DNA from: Candidatus Methylophosphatis roskildensis
GTDB taxonomy: Bacteria; Pseudomonadota; Gammaproteobacteria; Burkholderiales; Rhodocyclaceae
Length of the DNA: 64,000 nucleotides
NCBI GenBank assembly: GCA_016708905.1
Contig: JADJEV010000001.1
Coordinates: 12,254-76,253, forward strand
Direction of reading: 5' to 3'
Shown: positions 38,806 through 57,100 of the stretch, piece by piece
Layout of the letters: each line of letters starts with the position of its first letter
Position numbering within the stretch: the stretch's first letter is position 1
Notes under the pieces: generated by a model
The model's input: the letters and a program-made list of their open reading frames with translations, nothing else
Told to the model about the DNA's origin: nothing
Databases searched by the model: none
Translations under genes and position numbers: made by a program

Positions 38806-40460
38806 CTAAGCCGGACGAGCCGGAACCAAACAGGGGAATAGCGGTACCCTAGCGCTTGCGTGGAGCTTGTCGATGCGGAGGCCGCCATGGAGCTGCTTAC
38901 GACCCGGTACGCGGAGAATCTGGCAGGCGTGCTGTCTTGCTACGACCGGATCGTCATCACCGGCACGTTGCCCGGCGCGTGTTTCGCAGAGGGCATGACC
39001 AGCTTCTTGGTCTCCCGTGGGATCCGTATCTTCGACTACCCGCAGTTCGCGCTGCCTCTGCGGGAGCGCGTTCGCCATGCCGCTCAGGCGCTGGCAACGG
39101 AGCACGGCGCCAGGATCGAACATATCGCCAAGGCCCACGTTCGCAAAGAAGACGTCGTGGCCAAGGTGCTCGCGGCGCGTGGCGATGCGCCCGGCCTGGT
39201 GCACGTGATATCGGCGATGGAGACCTGCGCGACCTATCAACCCTGGCACGACAAGGCCAGCGGACGCACTTTCCTGCGCCCGGACACCACCAAGTGCCTG
39301 CACTACTACTTCTACTGGATGGACCGAGAGCTGGGGCTCATCTACGTGCGCGTGCCCACCTACTGTCCGTTCCGGCTGCAGGTTTACTGCAACGGACACA
39401 GTTGGCTGGCGCAACGAATGCGGCGCGAGGGCATCGACTTCGCCGCAGCCGACAACGCTTTTGCTCGCATAACCGACTTCGCTCGTGCGCAAGAACTCGC
39501 CGACACCTTCAAGCCTGAGTTGCTGCATCGCCACCTGGACCGCTACGCCCAGCTGTGCTGCCCCGTCCTGGATGTCTTTGGGCAGACCTACCACTGGAGC
39601 ATCATGCAGGCCGAATACTCGACCGACTTGGTGTTCAAGAGCGAGAAGATCCTCGGCTCGCTGTACCAGCAGCTCGCCCGCGAGGCAGTGCTCTCGGTGA
39701 AGGCCGAGCAAATCGCCACATTCCTGGGCAAGAAGATCACCCCGCAACTGGCCGCCGAGATTGGCTCGCGCCTGAGCACGCGCATTGAGGGAACCTGCAT
39801 CAAGCACAAATTCGGATCGGTCTCTATCAAGATCTACGACAAGTTCGCTCGCATCCTGCGCATCGAGACCACAACCAATGACGTTTCGTTCTTCAAGCAC
39901 CACCGCAAGGTGGAACACCGCACCGGCCGCACCACGCGAGAAGTCGCGCCACTGAAGAAATCCATCTACAGTCTCATCGACCTGCGCGAAATTCTGCTGG
40001 GCTGCAATCATCGCTATCTCGAGTTCCTCTCCAGCCTGGACGATCACAGCAGCGGACAACGCCTGCTTGAACGCGTGACGCAATCCAAACCTGACGGCGA
40101 CCGGTCCTTCAAGGGCTTGAACTTCTTCGATTCCAACGACCAAGCCCTCCTACGCGCCGTGCAACGACCCGAATTCAACATCCATGGCTTGGCCCGCTGT
40201 GACTTGATGCGCCGACTCCCTGACCAAACGCCCTCGCGACTGTCCCGCCAGCTCCGCCGCCTGCGCGTCCTCGGCTTGATCAAGCGCGCCGCCAACACCT
40301 ACCGCTACTACCTGACTCGAGCAGGCCGCATGGCCATCGCCGCGTTCGAGCGCCTCACCAACTTCGCAATCGTTCCTGCAATGGCCGCATAGCCGCAATG
40401 CATCGTTTCGGCCTCGCACTTCTGTGCCAGGACGCAAAACTTTGAAGTCGTAAGAGACTA
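38806..40460 (+). mobile_element. unclassified 1.65-kb repeated element, copy 2 (inside parE)
   Basis: Same sequence as 13889-15542, with one extra ACC codon at about 39286-39291. The junctions carry a 3-nt CTA ambiguity. Confidence 0.75.
38887..40392 (+). CDS. about 500-aa protein of the repeated element, copy 2
   Basis: Translation identical to copy 1 except RPDTTKCLHYY versus RPDTKCLHYY. Confidence 0.7.
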   Translation: MELLTTRYAENLAGVLSCYDRIVITGTLPGACFAEGMTSFLVSRGIRIFDYPQFALPLRERVRHAAQALATEHGARIEHIAKAHVRKEDVVAKVLAARGDAPGLVHVISAMETCATYQPWHDKASGRTFLRPDTTKCLHYYFYWMDRELGLIYVRVPTYCPFRLQVYCNGHSWLAQRMRREGIDFAAADNAFARITDFARAQELADTFKPELLHRHLDRYAQLCCPVLDVFGQTYHWSIMQAEYSTDLVFKSEKILGSLYQQLAREAVLSVKAEQIATFLGKKITPQLAAEIGSRLSTRIEGTCIKHKFGSVSIKIYDKFARILRIETTTNDVSFFKHHRKVEHRTGRTTREVAPLKKSIYSLIDLREILLGCNHRYLEFLSSLDDHSSGQRLLERVTQSKPDGDRSFKGLNFFDSNDQALLRAVQRPEFNIHGLARCDLMRRLPDQTPSRLSRQLRRLRVLGLIKRAANTYRYYLTRAGRMAIAAFERLTNFAIVPAMAA

Positions 40461-42461
40461 CTACGGTTGTTCGATTTCTTGATAGAGCAGGATCTTGCCG
40501 CAGCGGAGCGCGCCGAGGCTGCGATTGCCAAGGCGATCGAGCTGCTGGAAGTCTTTCCGTTCTCATGCCGCAAAGCCATCTGCGGTTCCGGCAGTCCCTT
40601 TCTTCGCGAACTGATCATTCCCTTCGGGGGTTCTGGGTACGTGGCGCTGTTCGAGATCGAGGATCCGCGGACCGTAACCATTCTCGCTGTGCGCCACCAA
40701 CGGGAGGAGGACTACCACTAACCGAAGAAGTCAGGCACCCACAATTCCCGACGAGGTCGCCAGAAATGGCGTGCATACCTCGGCCCCGTTGCGGTGATTG
40801 CGGACGCGACTGGAGGGCGTCTGTGATGGGCAGGGCGCGGCCATGACCGGCCGGACACCGCTTCCACGAAGCCGCCATCTGAACGGCCGCTGCAATCTTA
40901 GACCTGCCGGACGACTTCCCGATCCCGGCCGGGGAGTTCCTTTGAGGATGACATCCAGAAAGGCGCCGTTGCCACGGGCAGCTTTCAAAACGAAATGCTC
41001 TCCGCGTACAATCGGCCAGGAGCCACCGTTGCCCCACCGGCAGTTTCTGACATCTCATCGACAACTGCCGGTCGGCGAACGTGAGGCGGGCACCAGGGGA
41101 ACACGCAGCCAACCCGGGCCGCTTGAAACGGAGTGCTTGGCGCAGCATATGCTGGGCAGCTGAGCAGCCCGTTTCGCTCCCTGACAACCACCCCTCTTTG
41201 ACCTCGGGAGACCTTGTGAGCGAACAAATCTCTTTCGAAACCAACGATTTCGCCAGCAATCCGGAGCCGCGCTGCCCTTGCATCCTCCTGCTGGACGTGT
41301 CGAGCTCAATGAACGGGCGCCCTCTCGACGAGCTGAACGCCGGACTAGCCACCTTCCGAGACTAACTGTCGGCCGATGCCCTGGCGATGAAGCGGGTTGA
41401 GGTGGGCATCGTCACCTTTGGCCCAGTCAAGGTTGAGACCGCATTCACCAGCGCCTCCACGTTCTACCCGCCGACGCTTCAGTCACAGAGCGACACTCCG
41501 ACCGGAGGTGCCATCACCCAGGCACTGAACATGGTCGAGGAACGCAAGCGCGACTACCGCGCGAACGGTATTTCGTACTACCGCCCTTGGGTGTTCCTCA
41601 TCACTGACGGCAAGCCGACCGACGCATGGTCAAACGCGGCGGACGCCATTCGCGAAGGCGAGGCATCGAAGAAGCTTGCGTTCTTCGCGATTGGTGTGCA
41701 GGGCGCGGACATGGACACCCTTCGCAAGATCAGTGTTCGCGAACCGCTGTCCCTCCAAGGCCTTAAGTTCCGCGAGTTGTGTCGCGGCCGACCTGAACCC
41801 GGTTCAAAGGTGACGATGTGAAACCGGATGTTCTTCCTCGTTTTCTTCAGCTGGAAGTATCCGAGCTGGCGTCTTCTTCGCTGTTGGGTGTGTTCTTCGG
41901 TCTTCTTCAAGGATCGTGTAGTAGCCGGGGTTGTGACCTGGCAAGAGACACGACATGGGACGAGAGGAGAAGCGCGCATGCCTGAACTGCGGAGGGGATT
42001 TACTCCGGAGGCGCGTAACGCGCGGCATCAGCGGTACTGCCGCTTGGCACCGTGCAAGGCGGTGAGCAAGCGGGCGAGTCAGGCGAAATGGTTGGCCAAG
42101 GCGGAGAACTTGGACTACCACCGTGGACCACAAGCGGTGGCTCGGGTACAAGCCTGGCGGGCAGCGCACCCCGGTTACAGTCGGCGCAAGGCAGCGGTGG
42201 CGGCGCCAGAAGTCACAAGGCAAGAGGCCCTGCCGAGGGCAGCCACTGAATCCGCACAAGAGGACTTGCCGGCGGCGGAGTCGCTCGCGCAGCAGATCTC
42301 TTGTAACGCTCCGATCGCACCGTTACAAGATCTCTTGAATGCACAACCCATTGTTCTGGTTGGGCTTATCGCTCACATCTGGGGGACCGCGTTACAAGAA
42401 GACATCGCCTCGGCCGTCTCCCGGTTGGTACAACTCGGGCTCGACATCCGAGGAGGACATC

Positions 42462-42824
42462 ATGAGCATTGCCAAGCGGGTTCTGAACCCGGAACGCCTG
42501 CGTCAGGTGCCCGAACACTTCAGCTGGGTCGATCACCGCCTGGTGCGGGAGCACACCATCGAGAAGGCTGACGTCTGTGCCTGGGCGCTCTACCTGTTTC
42601 TGGTCGCCGTTGCCGATGTCCACGGCCTGAGCTACTACGCCGAGGCCAGCCTGTCCCGGCGCCTCGGACTCGATCCGCACCGTCTGGCGAAGGCGCGCAG
42701 CGATCTCATCGGGCTCGACCTGATCGCCTACGACCCGCCGCTCTATCAGGTCCTGAGTTTGCCCGTCCAGTTGCCGATGGCCGCACGCCTTGAGCAATTG
42801 CACGCCATTCTCGGGCGGCGCTGA
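42462..42824 (+). CDS. small IS21-borne ORF upstream of istA (function unknown)
   Basis: ATG 42462 after GAGGAGGA. MSIAKRVLNPERLRQVPEHFSWVDHRLV.. The stop overlaps the istA ATG (ATGA). Confidence 0.4.
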   Translation: MSIAKRVLNPERLRQVPEHFSWVDHRLVREHTIEKADVCAWALYLFLVAVADVHGLSYYAEASLSRRLGLDPHRLAKARSDLIGLDLIAYDPPLYQVLSLPVQLPMAARLEQLHAILGRR

Positions 42825-43507
42825 TGATCGACTACGCCACCTGGTGCGCCATCCGCGATGGTGTCGAGAAACACCTCACTGCGGATCAACTGGCCACAGC
42901 GTTGAGCCTGGACGTCAAGACCGTCCGCCGCTGGATCGGCCGACCCTATGCGCAGCGGCAGACGGCCAAGCGCGACAGCAAGCTCGATCCGTTCAAGGGG
43001 CGCATCGTGCGCTGGCTGGAGACCCACGCGCTCACCGCGCAGCAAATCTTTCAGCGCCTGTGCGACGAGGGCTACGGCGGGGGCATCAGCATCGTCAAGG
43101 ACTACGTCCGCGCGATTCGTCCGCGGCCCCGCGAAGCCTTCCTGACGCTGGCCTTTGCGCCCGGCGAGGTGGCTCAGGTCGACTGGGGGGAGTTCGGAAC
43201 CATTGCCGTCGGCGACACTCGGCGTCGCCTGTCGTTCTTCGTCATGGTCCTGGCCTGGAGCCGGCAGATGTACGTCGAATTCACGCTCTCGCAAACCATG
43301 GAGCAGTTCCTGGCGGCGCACGTCAACGCCTTCAATGTCTTGGGCGTCCCCAAAAAGGTGATGGTCGACAACCTGCGCTGTGCCGTGCTCCGCCATCCCC
43401 GTGGCGAGCACGCCGAGTTCAATCCGCGCTATCTCGACTTCGCCCGCCACTACGGTTTCCAGATCGTCGCCTGCGCGGTGGCCAAGGGCAACGAGAAGGA
43501 GTGAGGT

Positions 43508-45584
43508 TCATACTATCTCCTGTTGGTCATGTGCAACGGCCATTTCGCTGGGCAACTTCCGCGGCCGGCCGATCTTGGGCGCGACAACCGTACCGGGTTC
43601 GGGCATCACGTACAAGCAATGGCTGGGGCCGCCGTAGATCTCGCGCTCAAGGATGCCCAGGTTCGCCCAGTGACTGACGGTGGCCACGCATACACCCAAG
43701 CGCTGTGCAATTTCCTCGGCTGTCTGTAGGCCACGCGCACGGAGGCGCTCGTAGCGACTTCTGAGCTTGTAGGCTATGCGCATGCGGCGAACCTTCAGGT
43801 AAGTGAAGGGTTCTTGCCGCCAGTTGCGATATCCCATCTCGTTGAGCCGTTTGGCCGCCTGGGTATCACTACATGTTTCGAGCAATTGGTCCAGTGCAAT
43901 GACCACCTGGGGAGGTGTCTTGCGCACCTGCGCGATGGGCAGGCTTCGCGCTACACGGATCGAACTTGTCTGACCACCGCGCCAGCGAATTCCCGCAGTG
44001 ATTTCCTTGCGGTCGGCCACGATCGTCACATCTTCGATCAATAGGGCCAGCATGCGCTTGCGCTCTATGGGATCGGTACGAGGGTCGTGCCACACCCGTG
44101 GAAGTCCGCAGCGATGGCCATGACGCGTTCGCGGGCCTGGCTGTCGAGCGCCTTGGCATCGGACTGACGCTGTTGGTCATGGAATTGCTGCAAGGCACTG
44201 ATCTGTCGCAGACACGCGTTCCAGTCAGCCTCCAGCGCGTCTGCAACAAGGCGGTTGTCTGGATCGACCTTGAGGAATCTGCGACGGGCAAGATCTGCTT
44301 CATAGCGAGCCCGCTCGAGTTGCTTGCTCCGCAATTCATCGGCCCGCCCAATGCGCGCGGCGATCTCGTCCTGACCTGCAGGGCGAGCGCCAAGGCGGCC
44401 GGTGCGACCTTGTCCAGCAGCTGCGCACCGATCGCAGCGTCGAGGCTGGCCCCTTGTAGGCTCTGACATGCTTTGGCCCCGCGTCGCACGGCGGCCACCA
44501 GGCACTGGTAGTAAGGCACCGTAGTTGTGGCGATATGGCTGTATCGCGTGCTCATGCGCGCACCGCAACGTCCGCAAATGATGCGCCCCTGAAGCAGGCC
44601 AACGCCTTCGCGCGGCGGGCTGCCACGGCCGGTAACGCCGCGGCCGGGGGCGTTGTGCTTGAGCGTGAGCTGGTTGCGTTCGAACTCATCCCAGTCGATG
44701 TAGCCAGGATGTGCATTGCATATCAACGTATGCCACTGCTCACGCGGGACCTGCAGAAGATGGGGACGCAGATTTTCGTCACGGGCCGGTGGACGCGCCC
44801 AGGACAAAGGCACCGGCGTAGCGCGGGTTGTGCAGTATCTCTACCACGCGCCTGTGATCGATCGAACCCCAAAGCACGTCACCCTTGCCGAGGCCCCGCT
44901 GCAGGCGCCGAGGAAAGCGGACACCCTCGCGCTCGAAGCGACGCACGACCGCACAAGCCGAGCCGCTTTGCCGGTAGGTATCGAAGACGAACTGCAACGC
45001 ACTGCGGATCTGCGCGTCAGGATCGAGCACAACTGCACCGCTGGGTGTATAGACCAGGCCGACCGGTAGGGCCAATTCCAACTCACCACGGCTGGCCTTG
45101 TTGCGTATGCCGCCTTGCAGACGGGCCTTCAGGATGTGCAGTTCGGCCTCACTCATCGTGCCCTTCAGGCCCAGCAGCAGACGGTCGTTGAAGTGCGCAG
45201 GGTCATACACACCGTCTTCGTCGCAGATGAGGGTCTGCGACATGGCGGCGAGCTCGAGCAAGCGGTGCCAGTCAGCGTTGTTGCGCGCCAAGCGCGAGAC
45301 CTCCAACCCAAGGACGATGCCTGCGTGCCCCATGGCGACCTCAGAGACGAGGTGCTGGAAGCCGTCGCGGTTTCGCGAGCTGGCGCCCGAGCGTCCGAGA
45401 TCGTTGTCGATGGTGTGGATGCGTTCGATCGGCCACCCGAGTGCCACTGCGCGCTGTTGCAATGCGTACTGGCGCTTCGTGCTCTCGGTGTTTTCCAGCA
45501 CCTGGCGCAAGGTGGACTGACGAACGTACAGGTAGGCATCACGACGCAGATGGTTGGTGCTGACCTTGGGGATTCAGAGTACAT
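43508..45584 (-). pseudogene. large serine recombinase with several frame changes
   Basis: The pieces lie in different frames:
- (M)YSESP / KVSTNHLRRDAYLYVRQSTLRQVLENTESTKRQYAL..GIVLGLEVSRLARNNADWH (resolvase domain)
- ..REQWHTLICNAHPGYIDWDEFERNQ..GRIICGRCGARM (zinc ribbon)
- ..LERARYEADLARRRF (coiled coil)
- ..DPIERKRMLALLIEDVTIV..
ATG at 45584 after AGGAG. Confidence 0.75.
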
Positions 45585-46335
45585 GGGTAGGCTCCTGTGT
45601 ATAGCGCAAGACCATGTTGGCCAGCAGCCGCAACAGAGCGGGGTCGCTCGGCGAGGCGGCGGGCGTGACGGCGGGCGCACCTGAGCTCACGCCCACTACG
45701 GGTGTGCCGGCTGCGCCGATGAGCTTCATGCCACCGAGCAAGCCGTGATAAGCCACGGCAGCAAGCCCCTCTGGACGAGCTTGGCCGAGCAGCACAGCAG
45801 TGCGCAGTTGCTCGTAGGCTTCGATTCCTGCCGGCACGATCTTGCCTTTCGTCGTGGTGTCTGAGCGCGCTTCGAGGCTCAGCGTTTTTTTCCGCTCCAA
45901 CGCACGTTCGATGCTGCGTGGATGCACCGCGATGTGCTTCTCATCGCGTAGGGCCTTGGCGAGCGCTCGGGCGTGTAGCGTGGGATCCTCGGCCTGACGC
46001 CCGGCAATAAAGACCATGACCTCGTCGGTGAGCTTGTGCGCACCCTTGGGGCCGCGCCGTTGCGGCAAAAGCCCGGCTACGCCGTCGCGGTCGAACGCGT
46101 TCATCGCCTGGTACAAGGTCGGTCGCGACATTCCGTACATGGCCGCCGCCTGCGCCTTGGGCGTGCCCTCGTGGCTGACCTGGCGAAGCATCTCGTACTT
46201 CACCTGGACGAGGTCCAGCGCGTCGAAGAAGACACTGTTGCGAAAGTGTGGCGCGCTCACCCGGTCGGGGTGCAAGTTGAGCGACTCGTTCTGCTTTAGC
46301 CGCTCAGCCTTGGCGCTTCTCTTGGTCCTGATCAC
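45574..46335 (-). CDS. HTH-domain protein upstream of the serine recombinase
   Basis: ..VKYEMLRQVSHEGTPKAQAAAMYGMSRPTLYQAMNAFDRDGVAGLLPQRRGPKG.. The start is uncertain (GTG 46335 proposed). The upstream part of track ORF 45574..46584 is AT-rich and probably non-coding. Confidence 0.5.
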   Translation of the reverse strand: MIRTKRSAKAERLKQNESLNLHPDRVSAPHFRNSVFFDALDLVQVKYEMLRQVSHEGTPKAQAAAMYGMSRPTLYQAMNAFDRDGVAGLLPQRRGPKGAHKLTDEVMVFIAGRQAEDPTLHARALAKALRDEKHIAVHPRSIERALERKKTLSLEARSDTTTKGKIVPAGIEAYEQLRTAVLLGQARPEGLAAVAYHGLLGGMKLIGAAGTPVVGVSSGAPAVTPAASPSDPALLRLLANMVLRYTQEPTHVL

Positions 46336-46580
46336 AGTGGTTACAGTGGCCGTTTGTATGTATTGTAATATATGCCGCCATTGTTGGATGTCAAGGGTAA
46401 TTTTTTGCGAGGTAGACCTTTGAATAAGCCAAGCAAACATCACTAGCCCCCCACTTTCTACCTCCGTCACTCCGGCCAACCTGCCCAACCAGCAAGCCAC
46501 GAAGTCGATCACCGTCACCATTGATGTGTTCACTGACAAGATCATGAGCGGCATAATTAAAATGACGTATGCGGCGGAAT

Positions 46581-46763
46581 TCATTTGACACCGCCTTCTT
46601 CGTCGCGAACCTTCAGCGCGGCGATCAGCGCGCTCAGCCGCAGCAGATCATCGACGCGCAGCCAACTGCGCCCCGCCGACGCCGCCATGAACGAATCGAG
46701 CTCGTGCAGACTCGTCCACGACGTCAGCACTGAGACCAGCTGTCCCCGCGCGTCGTAGTACAT
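46581..46763 (-). CDS. small conserved-looking ORF at the head of the recombinase operon (start unclear)
   Basis: MYYDARGQLVSVLTSWTSLHELDSF.. The same frame is open upstream (..ITHAFHPRRGERITAATRKKTWGDDRI-MYYD..) without an obvious start. From memory it resembles small proteins that accompany serine-recombinase modules. Confidence 0.35.
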   Translation of the reverse strand: MYYDARGQLVSVLTSWTSLHELDSFMAASAGRSWLRVDDLLRLSALIAALKVRDEEGGVK

Positions 46764-47681
46764 GATCCGGTCATCACCCCACGTCTTCTTGCGCGTGGCG
46801 GCCGTAATCCGCTCGCCACGCCTGGGATGAAATGCGTGCGTGATCTCAACAAGGGTTCTCTGACATTGCGTACAACCGTCAGTTGGGGACTTACGAGAAG
46901 GGCCGGGTCGAGCGCGGTGTCGGCTACGTCAAGGGCAACTTCCTTGCCGGCCTGGATCTGCCGGAGTTTGCCGCGCTCAATCCGGCACTGCGCCTCTGGC
47001 TGGAGTCGGTGGCCAATGTCCGCTTGCACCGGGAAACCCATCGCCGGCCAGTCGATCTGTGGAGGGAGGAGCAAGCCCATTTGCAGGCGGTCAATCCCCG
47101 CCCCTTCGATGTCGGCCGGGTGCTGACGCTGCGCGCCAACCGGCAATTCCGGGTGAGCTTCGAGGGCAACCGTTATTCGGTACCGGCGCGCTTTGCCGGC
47201 AGCCAAGTGACCGTGAAGGTTTATCCGGACCGACTCTGCGTGTATCACGGCGAGGAATTGATCGCACGCCATGGCCGCTCATTCGAGCGGCACCGCGACA
47301 TCGAGGATCCGGATCATCCGAAGGCGCTGCTGGCACAGCGTCGCCATGCGCGCGACGCCCACGTGCTCAAGCGCTTCCTTGCCCTGTCGCCGCTGGCGGC
47401 GAAGTACCACGCCGGTCTGCTGGAGCGCCGCGGCAATGCCATTTCGCATGTCCGCAAGATCGTGGCGCTGGCCGAGATCCATGGCGACGATCCGGTACTG
47501 CGGGCGATGACTGATGCATTGGCCTTCGAGGCGTTCAGCAGCGAGTACATCGCGCATTTGATCGAGGCGCGCGAGCGCAAATTGCCCGAGGCGAGCCCGC
47601 TGCTGCTGATGCGCCGTCAGGATGCGCTGGATCTGGAGTTACCGCCGGCCGATTTGTCGGCTTATGCAAACTTAACAGGAG

Positions 47682-48434
47682 ATGACAATGGGAATGACTG
47701 AGGCTCTATTGCAGACGAATCTGAAGCGCTTGCAGTTGCCGTATTTCGCCGACCACCACAGCGCCTTGATGGCGCAGGCGGGGCGCGAATCCTGGTCGCA
47801 TGGCCGACTGCTCGAGCACCTGGTCGACGGTGAGGTGGCCCGTCGTGATGCCGCCTTGATCGAGCGCCGGCTGAAGGCGGCGCGCCTGCCCGGGATCAAG
47901 ACGCTCGATGGCTTCGATTGGAGTTGGCCGAAGAGGATCAATCGGGCGCAGCTCCAGCAGGTGTTTCGCCTGGACTTCCTCCCCCAACACGGCAATCTGA
48001 TCCTGCTCGGAGGCGTCGGTGTCGGCAAGACGCATCTGGCGATTGCCCTGGCGCATACCGCTTGCCTCAAGGGCAGGACGGCCCTGTTTACCAGCGCAGT
48101 CGATATCGTCAATACGCTGGCCGCCGCCCAGGCTACCGGCGGCATCAAGCGCGAGATGGCACGCCTGCTCAAGCCTTCGTTACTCGTCGTCGATGAACTG
48201 GGGTACTTGCCGATCGACAAGTTCGGCGCCGATGCGCTGTTCCAGGTGATCAGCCAACGCTACGAGCGCGGTTCGACGATCATTACTACGAATCGGGCGT
48301 TCAAGAACTGGCCGGAGATCTTCAACAACGACAGCACGCTGACTTCGGCTTTGCTCGACCGCTTGCTTCATCACGCCGAGTCCATCGTCATTGAGGGCCG
48401 TAGCTACCGCATGCGCGATCAGTCCGATTCCTGA
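47682..48434 (+). CDS. istB: IS21 helper ATPase IstB
   Basis: ..LLGGVGVGKTHLAIALA (Walker A)..LLVVDELGYLP (Walker B).. Confidence 0.9.
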   Translation: MTMGMTEALLQTNLKRLQLPYFADHHSALMAQAGRESWSHGRLLEHLVDGEVARRDAALIERRLKAARLPGIKTLDGFDWSWPKRINRAQLQQVFRLDFLPQHGNLILLGGVGVGKTHLAIALAHTACLKGRTALFTSAVDIVNTLAAAQATGGIKREMARLLKPSLLVVDELGYLPIDKFGADALFQVISQRYERGSTIITTNRAFKNWPEIFNNDSTLTSALLDRLLHHAESIVIEGRSYRMRDQSDS

Positions 48435-48685
48435 TCCGACCTTCACCATAAACCGCCGGCTTCCTGCATCGCAGGGCCGGCCGCTTTCGCTTGCTCCGGC
48501 GAGTCTCCCCTCGGGCCGCTTCAACACCCCAGTTTCCGCTCCGCTTCCAAGTCGTCAGATTCGGACCAGTTTCGAGCCGGCGCGGACAAGTTGTTCAGCT
48601 GGCTGTCGAGCTCGCTCCGCTCGGTGTCGCGTTCGACCCCCGGCACCGAGGTACCGCTCGAAGCACCCAAAGGCTGGGCCTCTGT

Positions 48686-49447
48686 GTGACTTGGCGTCTT
48701 GTGTACGCCTCTGAGGTCGGAACCTCCCACGCACACACCGCTACTCCCTGCCAAGACAGCTGCTGGGCATTGGTCGACCGTCTGGCGGACGGGCAGCCGC
48801 TCCTGTCGGTATTCGTCGCAGACGGGGCTGGCAGCGCTGCTAAAGGCGGGGAAGGTGCGGAGCTCGCTATCGAGGCTGCCGCAGCTTTCATCGCCAAGAA
48901 GGCGAAGCAGGGAGAGTTCGGTCTGAGCGACGTGCTTGCCACCGACATCGTGCTCGCAATACGCGAGCGCATTTATGCAGTTGCCGAAGCGGAGAAGCTG
49001 AAGGCGCGTGACTGCGCCTGCACGTTCTTGGGCGTGCTCTCGGCTGCTGCCGGGACGTTGGTTCTTCAAGTCGGTGACGGCGGCGTCGTTCTGGACACCG
49101 GTGCGGGGCTCGAGGTAGCCGTCGTCCCGATGTCGGGCGAGTATGCGAACATGACGCACTTCGTGACCGACGAGGACGCCGTGACCGTCCTTGCGACCAA
49201 GACGTACCCTGACCGGGCATTGAAGGTCGCTGCGTTCACTGATGGCATACAGCGACTTGCCTTGAACCTCGCGACCAACACACCGCACGAGCCGTTCTTC
49301 GCGCCGTTCTTCAACGGAATGGCCAAGGCAAATGCTGCGCAGGAAGACCAACTCCAAGGCCTGCTGGTCAAGTTCCTGAACAGCCCACCGGTCAACGAGC
49401 GCACGGATGACGACAAGACGTTCGCGTTGGCGCTCTGGATGTCCTGA
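48686..49447 (+). CDS. PP2C-like protein phosphatase (TerY-P triad member)
   Basis: The GTG at 48686 overlaps the vWA stop (GTGA). [44 protein letters not shown].. Confidence 0.75.
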
Positions 49448-50841
49448 CATCGCGTATGCCGAGGACCCTGTACACCTCCAGAGGGACAGCGGTCGACATC
49501 GGCCGCGAACTTGGCAAGGGCGGCGAGGGCTCAGTCTTTGATGTGCCGTCCTCGTCCAGCCAGGTCGCCAAGCTTTACCACAAGGCGCCGGACGGTAAGA
49601 AACAGGCCAAGTTGAGCTTCATGGCGTCAACAGCAGACGCCCAGCTGCTCAACTACGTCGCCTGGCCACAGGAGACACTACATCCCAGCCGAGGTGGCCC
49701 TGTCATCGGCTTCCTAATGCCGAAGGTGTCCGGCAAGAACCCAGTGCATATGGTGTACAGCCCGGCGCATCGCCGGCAGGACTATCCGAAGGCGGCTTGG
49801 GACTTCTTGCTGTACGTGGCGCGAAACATCGCGGCCTCGTTCAAGACTGTACACGCGCACGGCCACGTTGTTGGCGACGTCAACCAGAACAGCTTCATGG
49901 TGGGCCGCGACAGCAAGGTCGTCCTCATCGACAGCGACTCGTTCCAAGTCAACGCCCGCGGGACCATGCACCTCTGCGAGGTGGGCGTCTCGCACTTCAC
50001 TCCGCCCGAGCTCCAGACGTTGTCGTCGTTCGATGGGTTTAAGCGCACGACGAACCATGACAACTTCGGGCTGGCACTTCTGATATTCCATGTGCTATTC
50101 GGCGGCCGGCATCCGTAATCGGGCGTTCCCCTTCGCAATGGCGTAGGAGACGCGCTCGAGACGGACATCAAGAATTTCCGCTACGCCTATGCTCGGGACA
50201 ACCAAGCCCGTGGCTTCAGCCCGCCGCCACGCTCCATCCCGGTCTCTATGCTTCCCGATGCGATGGAGTCCATGTTCCATTTCGCGTTCACGGAGAAGGG
50301 AGCATCGGACGCTCGACCAACGGCACAGCAGTGGGTGGCCGCGCTAGACAGCGTCCGGAGCCGCCTCAAGAAGTGCAGCGCATCCGACATGCACGTCTAT
50401 CCAGACCGCTTGGCGTCATGCCCGTGGTGCTCTCTGGAAAGGCAGGGGGTGGCGTATTTCATCGATCTGGGCACTACCTTTACCCAGACGACCACAGGCT
50501 TTGTGCTTACTCAGAGCTTGTGATTTATTCCCCGGCGCGGCCGGAAGGCCACACAAGGAACATTGGCGCCGGGTTGTTCGGCGCAAGATGGATTTCGCAT
50601 TGCCTACCCCGCTATCGAGCGTTCATTTGGCGGATTTCCACCGATTCGGGCCCTCAAACCGGCAATCCGGCGATGCCGGACGAACCTGTCCCTATCCCGA
50701 GCAATTGCGGCGCCAGTGCCGCCATGCGCATCAGGTTGTGCGCCAGGGCGAAGATCGTGTCCCTCCGGCAATGCGGCATAGATTCTGCGGTTCGCGCTGA
50801 TTGGTACGGGGGTTGGCAATGAAGTAGTTTGCATTTGGGTC

Positions 50842-51759
50842 TTGCGTTCCAAATCCATCTCGGCTACTCTGCTGCGCATGCAGGGAACGCTGAGCTACCG
50901 TCACCGTGTGATCACCGACGAGGACCTCGTCTTCATTCGCAGTCTCATCGCCGAACATCCAGGCTTGAGCCGGAGGCAACTGTCCAAGAAGCTGTGTGAG
51001 GCCTGGAATTGGGTGCAGGCCAACGGCGCACCGCGCGACATGGTGTGTCGCGGGTTGATGCTGATGCTCCATCGCGAAGGTCTGATCGAATTGCCGCCGG
51101 TACGCTGGGTGCCGCGCAATCCGATGGTCGATCGCAGCCAACCGCAGCGGATGAGCGTGGATGAGGCGCCGCTGCATGCAAGATTCGCAGATCTTGGTCG
51201 GCTGGAGGTGCGCCAGGTGCGGCGTACGCCCGATGAGGCCTTGTTCAACAGCCTGCTCAAGCAGCACCACTATCTGGGTTACACGCAGCCGGTGGGGGAG
51301 CATCTGAAGTACCTGGTCTTCGCTCAGGGACGGCCGGTGGCCTGCGTGGCATGGTGCTCGGCACCGCGCCACCTGGGTAGCCGCGATCGGTTCATCGGCT
51401 GGGACAAGCAGGCACGGCGGCAGAACATCGGGCTGCTCGCCTACAACACGCGATTCCTCGTTCTGCCCTGGGTGACGGTGCCACACCTGGCCTCGCACAT
51501 TCTGGGACGCATGGCGCGCGTGCTCTGCGCCGATTGGCAGCGCCTGTACGGCCACCCGATCTATTTTGTCGAGACCTTCATCGACCCGCAGCGTTTTCGC
51601 GGGACCTGTTACCGAGCAGCCAACTGGATTGTGCTGGGGAGCACTACCGGGCGCGGCAAGGACGCACCGACCCGCCAGGCCAACCGCTCGATCAAGCAAG
51701 TGCTGGGCTACCCGCTGGTCAAGGAGTTCCGCCAGCGGCTCTCGGAAGTCCTCGTGTGA
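50842..51759 (+). CDS. DUF4338-domain protein (DruA-like domain) encoded inside the IS66 unit
   Basis: 305 aa, ..LLKQHHYLGYTQPVGEHLKYLVFA..RDRFIGWD..YNTRFLVLPW..YFVETFIDPQRFRGTCYRAANW.. Clearly homologous to the N-terminal part of the ISAs1 fusion at 1321. Confidence 0.75.
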   Translation: MRSKSISATLLRMQGTLSYRHRVITDEDLVFIRSLIAEHPGLSRRQLSKKLCEAWNWVQANGAPRDMVCRGLMLMLHREGLIELPPVRWVPRNPMVDRSQPQRMSVDEAPLHARFADLGRLEVRQVRRTPDEALFNSLLKQHHYLGYTQPVGEHLKYLVFAQGRPVACVAWCSAPRHLGSRDRFIGWDKQARRQNIGLLAYNTRFLVLPWVTVPHLASHILGRMARVLCADWQRLYGHPIYFVETFIDPQRFRGTCYRAANWIVLGSTTGRGKDAPTRQANRSIKQVLGYPLVKEFRQRLSEVLV

Positions 51760-53363
51760 AGCGCCCCGAATTCGTCAACGCCACTCAGGCACAGCTCGAC
51801 GAACTGCTGGCGCAGGCCAAGACGACATTCTCTGCCGAGCAATACGAACTGCTCGAAGGGGTGCTCGGCACCTTTGTGTACGTCATGCAGGCCTTGCAGA
51901 ACGCCAAGACCTCGATCAAGCGCTTTCGCCAGATGTTGTTCGGCGCGCGTACAGAGCGCAAAGCCAAGGTGTTCAAGGACCATGGCGAGCGCGCCGCCGG
52001 TGAGCCGCCTTCGGCTGAAACCGGTAACGCTGCGAAGCCTTCCCCGCCGTCGGCGGGGCACGGTCGCAATGGCGCACAGGCGTACTGCGGTTGCCCCGTG
52101 GTCGAGGTCAAGGTCGCCGATCTGCAACCGGGCGACCCATGCCCTGAATGCACCGAGGGCAAGGTCTATGACTCACCGCCAAGGATCCTCGTCAAGGTGC
52201 TCGGCCAGCCCCCGCTGGCAGCGACGCTCTACAAGCTGCGACAGTTGCGCTGCCGTCTGTGCGATGCGCGCTTCACCGCCTCCCTGCCCGAGGGGGTGAG
52301 CTTGCCCAAGTACGACCCGAGCTGCGCGAGCATGCTCGCCTTGCTTCGCTACGGCAGCGGCATGCCCTTCTACCGCCTCGAAGGCCTGCAGGCGAGTCTG
52401 AACGTCCCGCTCTCCGATGCCACGCAGTGGGACGTCGTGGCCAAGGCGGTACCGGGGCCACGCGCGGCCTTCAACGAACTGATCCGCCAGGGCGCACAGG
52501 CCCCGCTGCTGCATAGTGATGACACCCATGCGCAGATCCTCTCGCTGAGGGCGACACGCAGCCAGCTCGAGGCCGCCGGCCAGAGCCCTTCAGCCAAGGC
52601 GATCAACACCTCGGGTATCGTCGCCGTCCTGCCCGAGGCGCGCAAGGTGGTGCTGTTTTTCACCGGTCACCAGCACGCGGGGCAGAATCTGGCCGACGTT
52701 CTGGCGCAGCGGGCCCGGGATTTGGCCCCGCCGACCCAGATGAGCGATGCGCTGGCCTGCAACTTCGCCGGCGAGTTCAAAACGATCGTGGGCAAATGCC
52801 TGGCCCATGGCCGACGCAAGGTGCTCGAGCTGGTGGAGGATTTTCCCCAGCCGTGCCGCACCGTGATCGAGGTTCTGGCCAAGGTCTACACCGTGGATGC
52901 GCACTGCCGCGACGAGAAGATGTCCGCCGAGCAGCGCCTGCTCCACCACCAGGCCCACAGCGCCGAGCCCTTGCAAGGGCTGCATCGTTGGATGACGAAT
53001 CAATTCGAGCAGCACCTCGTCGAGCCCAACAGCAGCCTGGGTCAGGCCCTGCGCTACCTGCTCAAGCACTGCAGCGGACTCACCTTGTTCCTGCGCCAGG
53101 CAGGGGCGCCGCTGGATAACAATCTCTGCGAAAGAGTGCTCAAGCGGGTGATCTTGCATCGGAAGAATTCGATGTTCTACAAAACCAGCAAGGGGGCGGA
53201 GGTCGGCGATATCTACATGAGCCTCATCCACACCTGCGAGCTCTGCGGGGTCAACCCGTTCGAGTATCTGCAGGCATTGCAGATCCATGCGCAGAACGTG
53301 TTGACCCGGGCCGCCCTGTGGTTGCCCTGGAATTACCGCGAGCAGTTGGCACGCGCAGCCTGA
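51756..53363 (+). CDS. IS66-family transposase (TnpC-type)
   Basis: The GTG at 51756 overlaps the DUF4338 stop (GTGA). ..IKRFRQMLFGARTERK..CPECTEGKVYD..CRLCDARF..HSDDTHAQIL..CLAHGRRKV..DNNLCERVLKR..RKNSMFYKT.. Confidence 0.85.
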   Translation: MKRPEFVNATQAQLDELLAQAKTTFSAEQYELLEGVLGTFVYVMQALQNAKTSIKRFRQMLFGARTERKAKVFKDHGERAAGEPPSAETGNAAKPSPPSAGHGRNGAQAYCGCPVVEVKVADLQPGDPCPECTEGKVYDSPPRILVKVLGQPPLAATLYKLRQLRCRLCDARFTASLPEGVSLPKYDPSCASMLALLRYGSGMPFYRLEGLQASLNVPLSDATQWDVVAKAVPGPRAAFNELIRQGAQAPLLHSDDTHAQILSLRATRSQLEAAGQSPSAKAINTSGIVAVLPEARKVVLFFTGHQHAGQNLADVLAQRARDLAPPTQMSDALACNFAGEFKTIVGKCLAHGRRKVLELVEDFPQPCRTVIEVLAKVYTVDAHCRDEKMSAEQRLLHHQAHSAEPLQGLHRWMTNQFEQHLVEPNSSLGQALRYLLKHCSGLTLFLRQAGAPLDNNLCERVLKRVILHRKNSMFYKTSKGAEVGDIYMSLIHTCELCGVNPFEYLQALQIHAQNVLTRAALWLPWNYREQLARAA

Positions 53364-53388
53364 GCGCAGCGGCGCGCCCGGGCACGCT

Positions 53389-53748
53389 CTATGCGGCCAC
53401 GCTCAGCCGACGCCACGCCGGGGCCGCATTGGCGCGCGCCGGATCGCCCCCCATGAGCAGCAGTTGCAGCTCGCAGGCCTCGAGCGCCCGGCTCGGCTTC
53501 TCGCCGTCGGGCCAAAATGCGAACCGCCCGCTCGATAGCCGTTTCTGGCACAACCAGTAGCCTTGACCGTCATAGGTCAAAATCTTGATCGCCGTGCGCG
53601 CCCGGTTGCAAAAGACGAACAGGGCACCACTGAAAGGATCGGCCTCCAGGCGTTGTCGGCACGCGCCCACCAACCGATCGATTCCGGCACGAAAGTCGAT
53701 CGGCTCGACCGCCACCAGAATGCGCATGTGCGGCGTGATCTGGATCAT
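53389..53748 (-). CDS. IS66 Orf2 (TnpB)
   Basis: MIQITPHMRILVAVEPIDFRAGIDRLVGACRQRLEADPFSGALFVFCNRARTAIKILTYDGQGYWLCQKRL.. The ATG overlaps the tnpA stop. Confidence 0.85.
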   Translation of the reverse strand: MIQITPHMRILVAVEPIDFRAGIDRLVGACRQRLEADPFSGALFVFCNRARTAIKILTYDGQGYWLCQKRLSSGRFAFWPDGEKPSRALEACELQLLLMGGDPARANAAPAWRRLSVAA

Positions 53749-54167
53749 GCCGCACCCCAGAAGGCGCTGCACAGCCCAGCCAGGCCGGCAAGGCCATTGC
53801 CATTGAGTTCCACGCGCATCTTCGCCCCTCGCCCGTTCTCCAGCTCGACGGCACATTCGCACAGACTCTGCGCGCCAGGTGCCGGCGAAACCATCAACTC
53901 CACGAACCGCGGGCCGTCCTTCCCAGCGTCCGCCGCACTGACCTCGTGCTCCAGACGCTTCTTCAGCCTGTCGCGGTCGACGCGCAGCTCACACACCACG
54001 CGGTGCACCCCGTGTTCCCTGGCCATCTCTACCGCCGCCACCCACAAGCGCTCCGGAATATGTTCGCCGCGAACACGCCTCTCACGCCAATGCTTGAACC
54101 GCTCCCCTATCTGCGCCAGGCTCTCACCATGCCCCCTCGCTTGCTCGACCTTCGCCCTCTCGTCCAT
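53745..54167 (-). CDS. IS66 Orf1 (TnpA, HTH)
   Basis: 140 aa, ..IPERLWVAAVEMAREHGVHRVVCELRVDRDRLKKRL.. ..VELENGRGAKMRVEL.. Confidence 0.75.
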   Translation of the reverse strand: MDERAKVEQARGHGESLAQIGERFKHWRERRVRGEHIPERLWVAAVEMAREHGVHRVVCELRVDRDRLKKRLEHEVSAADAGKDGPRFVELMVSPAPGAQSLCECAVELENGRGAKMRVELNGNGLAGLAGLCSAFWGAA

Positions 54168-57100
54168 CAGTTGCTCTCCTCATCCGGTTGAACTCGCAGC
54201 TGAAGTTAGCAAGGACGTCGATCGATTTCATGCTGGCTTGCCGGAGGGACACCGAAGATCAGCATCACACATTTGACCTTTCCCAGCCCGCGCACTCGAA
54301 ACTGCTGCAATCCCCGATTGCGACTGTGCGCATTGACGCATTCGGCCGTTGCCGCCCGTCGCTTGTACAGGGCCTTCGCTTCATCCGTGCCCATCCGCTG
54401 GCGCCAAGCCGCCACTGCCTCGCTGTCGCGCGCCTTGGCCTGGTGCGGGTCGACCGTCTTGTCCTTCGGTTCGGGCACCGGCCCATAGACGCATGTGCTC
54501 TCACTGGCCCGCTCGATCTGCTCGTGACCGACATAACCGCCATCGACCAGCCAGGCTTCTGGTGCCCGCCCACAGCGCTCGGTGACCTGCTCGAGCATCG
54601 GCCCCATCTGTCCCTGATCGGTGCCGATGGTGGCCACATCAAGACCGACGATCACCAGACTGTCGGCATCAGAGGCCAGTTGTGGGTTGTAGGCCGGCCG
54701 GAAGCCGCCATCGCCCATCTTCATCACCGTGGCCTGGGCGTCGGTCATCGAGACCCGCGCTTGTTCGGCGGGCTTGCCTTGCCGCTGCTTGATCGCTTCG
54801 ATCTCGGGCAGCCGGGCCAGCGCCTGCTCCAGACGCTCTTGGCGTTGCTGCGCCGCCCGCCGCCGGGCCGCCTCCCGTGCCCGTTGGACCAGGGCCGGGT
54901 CGGCCTCCAGTTCGGCTTTCAACCGCGCCACGTGCGCGCGCGCCGCTTCCAGGCAGCTTGCCAGTTTCTCTTTGCGCCGAAACGAGCCGGCCCCGGCACT
55001 GGCGCGTACCCGCATCCCGTCCTGGGCCACCTGCTTGAGCTTGACCACCCCCGCGCCCATCAGGCTCGCAATGCTCACGCTCAGCAGTTCATCGAGCGCT
55101 TCACCGTGATCCTTGCGAAAGTCCGACAGCGTGTGGTGATTGACCTGCACACCACCACAGAGCCAGCGATAGGCGTCGTGCGCTTCGATCAGGCGGGAGA
55201 CTTCCCGCGCGCTGCCTACCCCGTCGAGCGTGGCGTACAGCCACAGCGAGAGCAAAATCTCCGGGGCGATCGCCGCGCGCCCGACACCGCCTTCGGCTAC
55301 CCGCACAGTTGCGTAGAAGCGCCCCAGATCCTGGCGCTCGACATAGGCCCAGACCAGTCGCGCCCGGTGCCCTTCGGCCAGCAGCGATTCAAGATCGCTG
55401 GCCCGAAATTCCATCTGCCCTCGGTTCGGTAACAGCACGCGCGCTCGGGTCTTCGTCATCTTCGCTGTCTCGCACCAAGGCCAGAGTACATTATGCCACA
55501 GACATCATCCGGGCGGGGGATTTTTTCACAGCCTCTCAGGTCTGGGCTGTGATCGAGGCCGTCGCGGCGCCGCCCACTCTGAGCATCCCGAGCCCGAGCG
55601 AATTCAAGGTCACCGCGCAAGCGCTGCCGGCTGGCGTCCCGGGGGCGGGCACCATCACCTTCTACCGCTTGCTTGCAGTGGGCATCGGCATCGCCATCGC
55701 GGTGGCGCCCCCCAAGGCCATGTTCTGGGGCATCGTGATCGGAGCCATCGGCTGGATCATCGCGGGAAGCGCTGGTTCGTCTGAACGCACGGCCGAGCGC
55801 TCGCGCCGCTCAACTGCACAACAGGCCGCGAAGAAGGAATACGACGAGCTGGTTGAGCGGGTACAGCGGGATGCTGGACCCGCAGGCTTTCAGGCTAAGC
55901 GAGCGGAGCTGTCCAAGCTTCGTAACGAATATCAAGCGCTGCCGCAAGCCGAGAGGCAGGAGCTGGACCACCTGCATTCCACGGCCCACGAGCGCCAGCA
56001 GCAGAAGTTCCTGGACACCTGTTTCATCGACAGTGCCTCAATTTCCGGTGTCGGTCCGGCGCGGAAGGCCGCGCTTCGGTCCTTCGGCATCGAAACGGCA
56101 GCCGACGTGAGCCGCAGCAAGGTGATGCAGGTACGGGGCTTCGGAGAAGGCCTCACCCGGGCGATGACGGACTGGAAGGCATGCTGTGAGAGACGGTTCG
56201 TCTTCAACGCATCAAACGCCGTCTCCGCTGCTGACCGTGACGCGGTTCGCTCCAAGTTCGGCGCCCGAAAGGTGAGCATCGAAGCTGCCTTGACCCGCGG
56301 AGCGGGAGAACTGCAAAACTTTAGGCAGCGTGCCACCAGCCAGATGGCCATGCTAAAGCCGCAGCTCGAAGCTTCAGCCAGGAAGCTTGCCCAGGCCGAA
56401 AAGGATCTGTCGGCTCTGTAGAGGAACGCCTGCGCGATGCGCCTCGCTTCGAAGAACGCTTGCAAGAAGTCGCCGCGCGGATGATGCTCGACCCACATCA
56501 GCGGTGTTTTGGTGGTTATGCATGGCTCGCGCGCGAGCAGCTGCTTTGGGGCGATGAGTTCAGCTTTGCAAATTTTGCTGACGGGTCGGCGCTAGAAATC
56601 TCCAAGGTCGGCAGCCCGCACAATGATGAGTACTCCCGGCGGAACCCCAACGGCAGGTCAGGCCGACGACTTGTCGGTGATCAACCTTCACGAACGGCTG
56701 CTCCACTCCGTCACCGGCCATAGAACCGCTGATTCCGCATCCGGCAGCTGAGGGTCGCGTCCTGCCGAAGCGGAAATGGAAAGCGGCCGTTCGGCGCGGT
56801 TTTCCAACGTGTGGCAGGAAACCGGCGGATAGCGGCCACAGCCGGCGCAAGACGCCACGGGCCGCAATCGCGGACGAGCTGGCCGAATGTCAATCGAGTT
56901 GAGCCGCAGGCCCACTGGATACCGGCATCGGTGACCCTCGATTTCGCGTCGCCGCTACGTCTCTTTGTGGCCGGATGCTGCCAGTGATCTCGCCATTCCC
57001 AAGTAGTGGTAATGGCCGACCTTGACTCATACTTTATTCGGTTGCATCCATAAGGTCGGTAGACCTGCGCGAAGGTCCATTCCATGATCTCGAAATCAAC

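Follow-up and report, generated by a model that had tools for sequence, protein, structure and literature searches.

A probable dead copy of the yegL-pphC-yegI signalling cassette, broken by stop codons and nested insertion sequences, in Candidatus Methylophosphatis roskildensis

The window analysed here is a stretch of 64,000 nucleotides from Candidatus Methylophosphatis roskildensis (assembly GCA_016708905.1, contig JADJEV010000001.1, positions 12,254 to 76,253 of the forward strand). Once the insertion sequence (IS) DNA is skipped, its positions 41216-56421 encode a vWA protein, a PP2C phosphatase, and a Ser/Thr kinase. The triad bears two TAA stops and two IS insertions, and each IS holds a further nested element. 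The locus is very probably a defunct member of the yegL-pphC-yegI type, a widespread signalling cassette of three genes and a branch of the TerY-P class, which was acquired horizontally and has undergone ordinary gene decay. The features are listed in Table 1.

Table 1. Genes and mobile elements of the interrupted cassette (window coordinates)
Feature	Position	Strand	Evidence
yegL-like vWA gene, 5' part (residues 1-188)	41216..41780	+	Translation; Pfam VWA 3.5e-12; metal-ion-dependent adhesion site (MIDAS)
IS21-family element	41781..48589	+	Pfam rve, Mu-transpos_C_2, IstB_IS21 1.7e-72; target duplication
Nested serine-recombinase/helix-turn-helix (HTH) element inside istA, 3,393 bp	43500..46892	-	Pfam Resolvase, Recombinase, Zn_ribbon_recom; HTH_28
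yegL-like vWA gene, 3' part	48595..48689	+	Joined frame
pphC/yegK-like PP2C phosphatase, intact, 253 aa	48686..49447	+	Pfam PP2C_2 (PF13672) 1.7e-42; D46 present
yegI-like Ser/Thr kinase, 5' part (kinase domain and CPWC zinc ribbon)	49456..50514	+	Translation; K39, D141, D159, S162 present
IS1182-family element	50515..55534	-	NCBIfam transpos_IS1182 (NF033551) 3.3e-101; target duplication CTCAG
Nested IS66-like element, 3,496 bp	50757..54252		23-nt inverted ends; 8-bp duplication CGAAGATC
yegI-like kinase, 3' part (two hydrophobic helices, coiled coil, helix-hairpin-helix)	55540..56421	+	In-frame join; stop TAG 56419-21

The vWA gene starts with GTG at 41216, as read from the translation of 41081-41860, and its MIDAS motif DxSxS (DVSSS) begins at residue 27. 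An in-frame TAA at 41363-41365 takes the place of codon 50, which encodes D or E in intact relatives. The frame is recovered when 41781-48594 is left out, and the resulting 37-residue tail is identical to that of L003 and differs by one residue from that of L006. These two intact metagenome loci have about 81% DNA identity to the window and are colinear with it after both IS blocks are skipped, with breakpoints in the alignment that match the IS ends to a few bases. The vWA stop TGA at 48687-89 overlaps the GTG start of the PP2C gene at 48686. The phosphatase frame is open, and its product keeps 45/45 of the residues whose conservation in the family reaches 97%. The kinase frame has a TAA at 50116-50118 (codon 221), a position held by Y in 12/12 of the closest relatives checked. 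When the two kinase parts are joined, the frame continues over 646 codons, covers 100% of intact relatives of 646 aa, and aligns over 96-100% of its length, at identities of up to 90%, with over 100 intact proteins (644-651 aa); the protein collection has no intact allele closer than 90% identity. The 3' part shows a conserved GVGPARKAALRSFGIETAADV block and a weak match to HHH_5 (E 0.0015). Both stops are nonsense substitutions of a single base.

An initial annotation of this DNA had described three adjacent genes after IS removal, the overlap of the PP2C start with the vWA stop, a TAA together with an IS21 in the vWA gene and a TAA together with an IS1182 in the kinase gene, a helix-hairpin-helix (HhH) region at the C-terminus of the kinase, and a phosphatase as the only intact member. 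All of these features were found at their places. The elements nested inside both ISs are absent from the text of that annotation.

The IS21-family element is flanked by a 5-bp target duplication, AGTTG, at 41776-80 and 48590-94, and its ends read TGTCGCGGCC... and ...GGCGCGGACA. It has the gene content of its family, namely istA with rve and Mu-transposase C-terminal domains followed by istB (47682-48434), and istA is interrupted, with its two parts at 42824-43504 and 46883-47701. The element nested in istA encodes a large serine recombinase and a 336-aa HTH protein, and its flanks form a 9-bp ACGAGAAGG repeat. Three other genomic copies of the IS21 have 99.5-100% identity to this one, making four in all, and the copy at C1:267410-278096 is without the recombinase element. 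The recombinase/HTH element is confined to IS21 copies (3/4), where it sits at the same istA site with the 9-bp ACGAGAAGG repeat each time; besides the window, the genomic regions concerned are C3:959997-963395 and C2:414243-420268. At a second istA site (about 43164-43189 in the window), other inserts of 3.4 or 7.3 kb are present in the three other IS21 copies. Since insertions occupy these two sites, istA is broken in all four copies. Compared with assembly GCA_963852225.1 (L007), the window has one-base deletions at 41993, 44099, 44372, 44788, 44801, and 45567. The serine recombinase is an open frame of 693 aa in L007, and the apparent frameshifts of the window recombinase thus look like consensus errors of the assembly from which the window was taken.

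The IS1182-family element has the DDE transposase typical of its family, inverted repeats at its ends, which are similar and read AGCTTGTGA... and AGGCTGTGA..., and a target duplication at 50510-14 and 55535-39. The IS66-like element nested in it interrupts the transposase gene. A second genomic copy at C3:898072-899596 is contiguous and has 94-97.5% identity. The IS66-like element encodes a DruA/DUF4338-like protein and TnpC on the plus strand, and TnpB and a 140-aa open reading frame (ORF) on the minus strand, with profile matches to Pfam DruA (1.7e-30), DDE_Tnp_IS66, and TnpB_IS66. At 50842-53363 the DruA/DUF4338-like gene lies directly 5' of the TnpC-type transposase gene, the genes for TnpB and the 140-aa protein are convergent with these, and the inverted ends of the element are intact.

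The lesions were checked by searching 40-base strings across each of them in independent records obtained from exact-protein look-ups. The same locus occurs at 99.5-100% identity in several such records, comprising the genome assemblies GCA_963852225.1 and GCA_016707455.1 and the wastewater short-read contigs ERZ27280354, ERZ27280359, ERR12727950, ERR12727960, ERZ965214, and ERZ965218, which come from several samples and are of megahit or Logan origin. Exact copies of the vWA TAA and of the left junction between vWA gene and IS21 are present in 8 other records. For the kinase TAA, the right junction of IS21, and the left junction between kinase gene and IS1182, this number is 5, for the left junction between IS1182 and the IS66-like element it is 4, and for the right junction of IS1182 it is only 2, the long genome assemblies L007 and L008. 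Short-read metagenome contigs thus reproduce both stops and all but one of the six IS junctions that were checked. Between the window and GCA_963852225.1, the only differences are three substitutions and six one-base deletions, and the triad contains none of these. The lesions are not artefacts of the window's assembly.

The JGI name 'DNA-binding helix-hairpin-helix protein with protein kinase domain' together with the protein sizes led to E. coli yegI. Sequence comparison identifies the triad as the end-to-end ortholog of yegL-pphC-yegI of E. coli K-12, with identities of 77% for the vWA protein, 64% for PP2C, and 61% for the kinase. The first and last of these figures come from the intact relatives L006 and P0002, respectively, whereas the PP2C figure is that of the window's own protein, which aligns with E. 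coli PphC over 251/253 aa. YegI is an active Ser/Thr kinase that is without some of the canonical motifs and autophosphorylates on serine; S162 is important, and K39 and D141 mutants have been made (10.1101/819920). It is a two-pass inner-membrane protein with a two-helix hairpin and both termini in the cytoplasm (10.1101/819920). PphC is a Mn-dependent PP2C (D46) that dephosphorylates YegI (10.1101/303594). The window reading has all of these residues, K39, D141, and S162 of YegI and D46 of PphC, and they do not vary in alignment A1. A functional member of the family has open, uninterrupted frames, and their loss marks the window copy as a pseudogenised member. In E. coli complete genomes, yegL-pphC-yegI is nearly always found at one chromosomal place, with a median of one per genome. 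The gene yegJ occurs in only a subset of these genomes, and matches covering 81% of the query are those without it.

The cassette is widespread and compact. Among pattern-matched stretches in GTDB species-representative genomes, 493/591 encode a relative, and these span Beta- and Gammaproteobacteria, Desulfobacterota, Nitrospira, Planctomycetes, Verrucomicrobia, and Actinobacteria, with one labelled as the archaeon Methanoregula. Of 79 loci retrieved, 76 have homologues of vWA, PP2C, and kinase in this order. The cassette is absent from all 60 of the relatives of the window genome that were searched, two of the same genus included. Synteny with a same-genus genome (L104, G002:C6) starts at 57392, the 3' end of an acyl-CoA synthetase-like gene (57392-59290, minus strand), and none of the window DNA to the left of this point was found at the congener's locus. 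The absence from 60 relatives and the end of synteny at the acyl-CoA synthetase gene indicate that the cassette was acquired horizontally. For the same lack of orthologs, dating of the lesions rests on sister assemblies of the same population, all of which share them.

The neighbours of the triad are mixed and include integrases, transposases, AAA_15/21, PIN, methylases, and many housekeeping genes, a context that does not decide for or against a defence island. A secreted-type SNase gene lies just 5' of the vWA gene in the closest intact relatives (L003:5901-6467, L006:3786-4349, L021, L022, and L030). It is missing in the window, where homology begins at 41168, 48 bp before the vWA start. 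As it is limited to the nearest relatives, it was rejected as a core fourth gene. The neighbours that recur most often are DUF4236 proteins, with 7/150 flanking ORFs (L034, L043, L069, L071; L020:3832-5055); one is also found in the Klebsiella ter cluster next to TerY genes, and none in the window genome. This family was likewise rejected as a core fourth gene, as it is found on either side of the triad and is absent here.

According to the CoCoNuT paper (PMC11090510), the members of the TerY-P triad are a vWA protein like TerY, a PP2C, and a kinase that carries a zinc ribbon at its C-terminus; the triad definition of Anantharaman et al. 2012 was taken from papers that cite it. The ter-operon TerY-P of Klebsiella plasmid NZ_CP098170.1 served as the comparison triad. 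The window vWA protein has 30% identity to the ter-cluster TerY-C protein (E 4e-22) and 31-32% to plasmid proteins annotated as TerY, the PP2C has 27% identity to its ter-cluster counterpart (E 3e-7), and residues 4-338 of the kinase, including the CPWC ribbon, align with the ter-cluster kinase at an hhalign probability of 94.6% (E 7e-8). Through this three-protein homology, membership of the cassette in the broad TerY-P class of Anantharaman et al. is supported, with a TerY-like vWA protein, a PP2C, and a ribbon-bearing kinase all present.

A narrower assignment has also been considered, in which the cassette belongs to the TerY-P system that Gao et al. 2020 validated against phages and the strain has consequently lost a phage defence. 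The TerY-P of Gao et al. has been described as active against T7-like phages (PMC7699616), and it has the same three domain types in the same order as the cassette, whose vWA protein is homologous to TerY-type vWA proteins. Moreover, two of the closest intact loci lie among defence-type genes, namely BrxR, DUF499/DUF1156/SNF2 helicase, a Schlafen-like helicase, McrA-like, and AAA_15/21 proteins. On the other hand, the PADLOC TerY model PDLC02224 matches neither the window proteins, nor the intact relatives, nor any frame of the genome at E<=1, and the control E. coli YegL reaches it at E=0.03 only. The initial annotation had suggested running PADLOC on the IS-free reconstruction, and that search found no TerY. 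The ter-plasmid triad is also unmatched by PDLC02224, which shows that the model is narrow. In the modules tested by Gao et al., an OB fold at the kinase C-terminus replaces the ribbon, according to PMC11090510. The last 290 residues of the cassette kinase form instead a hydrophobic hairpin, a coiled coil, and an HhH region, and are neither of the ribbon-only nor of the OB-fold type. Unlike a typical accessory defence system, the cluster is species-core in E. coli (5,417/5,426 genomes, at a single place), so that laboratory hosts already carry it, and the neighbours over about 40 loci are heterogeneous, with many housekeeping genes. No phage-protection experiment on the yegLKI subfamily was found in the literature searched; a TerY-P variant of P. 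aeruginosa has also been described, for which PMC10889362 gives primers without sequences. By its profile and tail architecture, the cassette appears not to be of the PADLOC/Gao TerY-P subtype, and the loss of a validated phage defence is considered unlikely. Of the idea from which the analysis started, a TerY-P triad that is also an anti-phage system, the membership of the broad class is thus supported by the homology to the ter triad, and the identity with the subfamily of Gao et al. and PADLOC is not.

Besides two nonsense substitutions, the operon received an IS21, which split the vWA gene, and an IS1182, which split the kinase gene. The serine-recombinase element either came in with the IS21 or entered it later, and the IS1182 was subsequently hit by the IS66-like element. 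The first hit ended function, and later hits fell on neutral DNA in a genome under IS expansion, where insertion of ISs is the dominant kind of mutation. As the IS21 separates the vWA 3' end, the phosphatase, and the kinase from the 5' end of the cassette, it is probably polar on them. The description of the system as inactivated four independent times reads too much into the data: four lesions are real, but only the first of them inactivates, and the rest fall on a dead operon. Every assembly found of this population carries the decayed cassette.

Of the 5.0-Mb genome (G000), 742 kb (14.8%) is repeat DNA, counted from a length of 400 bp and an identity of 95% upwards and distributed over 190 blocks. 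Upstream of the cassette, a parE toxin gene is interrupted at 38809-40454 by an IS of 1,646 bp. The genome contains 15 full-length copies of this IS with identities of at least 99.8%, and its 510-aa protein gives no significant Pfam match, with one weak match below the curated cut-off. In two short-read contigs of the same population (L013 and L014), this IS is absent and the empty site is clean. Its polymorphism between assemblies indicates that IS activity in the population is ongoing, and the triad lesions, being common to every copy found, are probably older than this insertion.

Lineage-specific substitutions were counted at codons for which both other ingroup loci agree with one or more outgroups. 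The numbers of nonsynonymous and synonymous changes (N/S) were 25/104 for the window, with stops included in its N, 16/120 for L006, and 19/90 for L003 (Fisher p=0.24). Of the residues with a family conservation of 97% or more, the window retains 206/207 (vWA 79/80, PP2C 45/45, and kinase 82/82). With these residues kept and N/S not raised, the inactivation is recent relative to the divergence from the nearest relatives. No signal of relaxed selection beyond the lesions themselves is measurable. As the phosphatase accounts for only some 23% of the coding length, the probability that four hits placed at random all miss it is about 0.36. Neutral decay suffices, and selection against the system is not required. 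The relaxed or negative selection proposed in the initial annotation is accordingly not borne out by the N/S comparison, the repeat load, or the escape of the phosphatase, which chance would allow in about 36% of cases.

An adaptive loss would hold that the cassette is costly or self-toxic, and that kinase and vWA genes were hit repeatedly and the phosphatase was kept as an antidote. Two of the four lesions are indeed in the vWA gene, two in the kinase gene, and none in the phosphatase gene; there is almost no other decay at conserved residues, so the hits came close together; and the reversal of YegI autophosphorylation by PphC in vitro would fit an antidote role. Nevertheless, one lesion suffices to inactivate, and further hits gain nothing under selection. 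The chance of missing the phosphatase is as given above, the IS load is very high genome-wide, and N/S is not significantly raised. Furthermore, disruptions in the 79 related loci are roughly proportional to gene length, with about 8 in the kinase, 3-4 in PP2C, and 3-4 in the vWA gene, in a rough tally that includes assembly errors. Adaptive loss is accordingly held to be quite improbable. Its most specific form, in which a toxic membrane kinase is held in check by the phosphatase, kinase and sensor are shed first and the phosphatase last, and the locus is a snapshot of this selected loss, is more doubtful still. If true, E. coli yegL-pphC-yegI would be a kinase-based abortive-infection or addiction-like module.

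That the stops and IS junctions arose as errors in the assembly or consensus of a metagenome-assembled genome from long reads can scarcely be credited: the window does have one-base deletions relative to its sister assembly that falsely frameshift the serine recombinase, but both TAAs are substitutions rather than indels, and these, like both IS21 junctions and the left junctions of IS1182 and IS66, are identical in the two other genome assemblies and in short-read contigs from several samples, by which the artefact reading is largely refuted.

Several points weigh against reading the locus as a neutrally decayed yegL-pphC-yegI-type cassette. Pfam Pkinase gives no match to the kinase, whose other matches are all weak, comprising PD-T4-6 and MkoA among PADLOC models and lanthionine-synthetase kinase domains in NCBIfam. 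An AlphaFold2 model of the kinase from 15 sequences has a mean pLDDT of 62.6 and is poor over the kinase domain (below 50). Residues 360-646 are modelled confidently, as almost wholly helical. A Foldseek search of this model against PDB gives nothing at E<=0.001, with non-significant hints of IRAK4 and RIPK1, and the sequence profile of the kinase has no match in PDB. The predicted fold supports neither the kinase identity nor its opposite. Given the missing Pkinase match and the poor model of the kinase domain, the kinase identity rests on orthology with YegI and on the weak matches to kinase models. In addition, a 2026 paper reports no inducing condition or role yet for yegI/pphC (PMC13232886). 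A sensor or switch model of the intact cassette is hence conditional. Finally, four lesions in 3.35 kb with almost no other decay are somewhat above a simple neutral clock, which leaves a small probability for selected loss.

As in the E. coli orthologs YegI and PphC, the kinase of an intact cassette would be anchored in the membrane by its hairpin and would autophosphorylate, with the PP2C reversing this modification. The MIDAS-bearing vWA protein could act as a sensor or scaffold, and the C-terminal HhH region of the kinase may contact nucleic acid. Together, the three proteins might respond to a signal of stress or of an invader by switching through phosphorylation.

Taken alone, the locus tells little, as a pseudogene cluster of this kind is routine for a wastewater bacterium so laden with ISs. 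Its value lies in tying the cassette to the biochemically studied, functionally orphan yegL-pphC-yegI operon of E. coli, and in presenting this type as a compact, widely transferred three-gene unit with near-invariant order in several bacterial phyla, which the current PADLOC TerY model misses. The family can be used as a test set for the function of YegI and PphC, or for whether TerY-P-class triads are generally defensive.

Compared with known systems, the cassette is closest to E. coli yegL-pphC-yegI. The proteins are of 219, 253, and 648 aa in E. coli and of 219, 253, and 646 aa in the cassette, and both loci have the same gene order and the 4-bp overlap between vWA and PP2C genes. YegI and the cassette kinase also share their layout, with a zinc ribbon, two membrane helices, and a C-terminal HhH. 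In contrast to the cassette, K-12 has yegJ between pphC and yegI. The E. coli locus is intact, whereas the window copy is pseudogenised by two stops and two ISs. Moreover, the E. coli locus belongs to nearly every complete genome of its species, whereas the cassette here appears recently acquired and is not in relatives.

The ter-linked triad of Klebsiella has the same order of vWA, PP2C, and kinase genes and shares the zinc ribbon with the cassette kinase, but its vWA protein with a TerY-C domain (346 aa) and its PP2C (577 aa) are larger, and its kinase (499 aa) is without membrane hairpin or HhH. The identity between ter-linked and cassette proteins is only 23-30%, and ter genes lie near the Klebsiella triad and none near the window cassette. 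The anti-phage TerY-P of Gao et al. 2020 combines the same three domain classes as the cassette; its tested modules have an OB-fold kinase tail, whereas the cassette kinase has transmembrane helices and HhH. A decayed TerY-P cluster in Helicobacter pylori (PMC4978471) is a precedent for the decay of such modules. The H. pylori cluster is, however, of a different subfamily and lies in a large McrBC/type VII-like island, and it has decayed by deletion and not by IS insertion.

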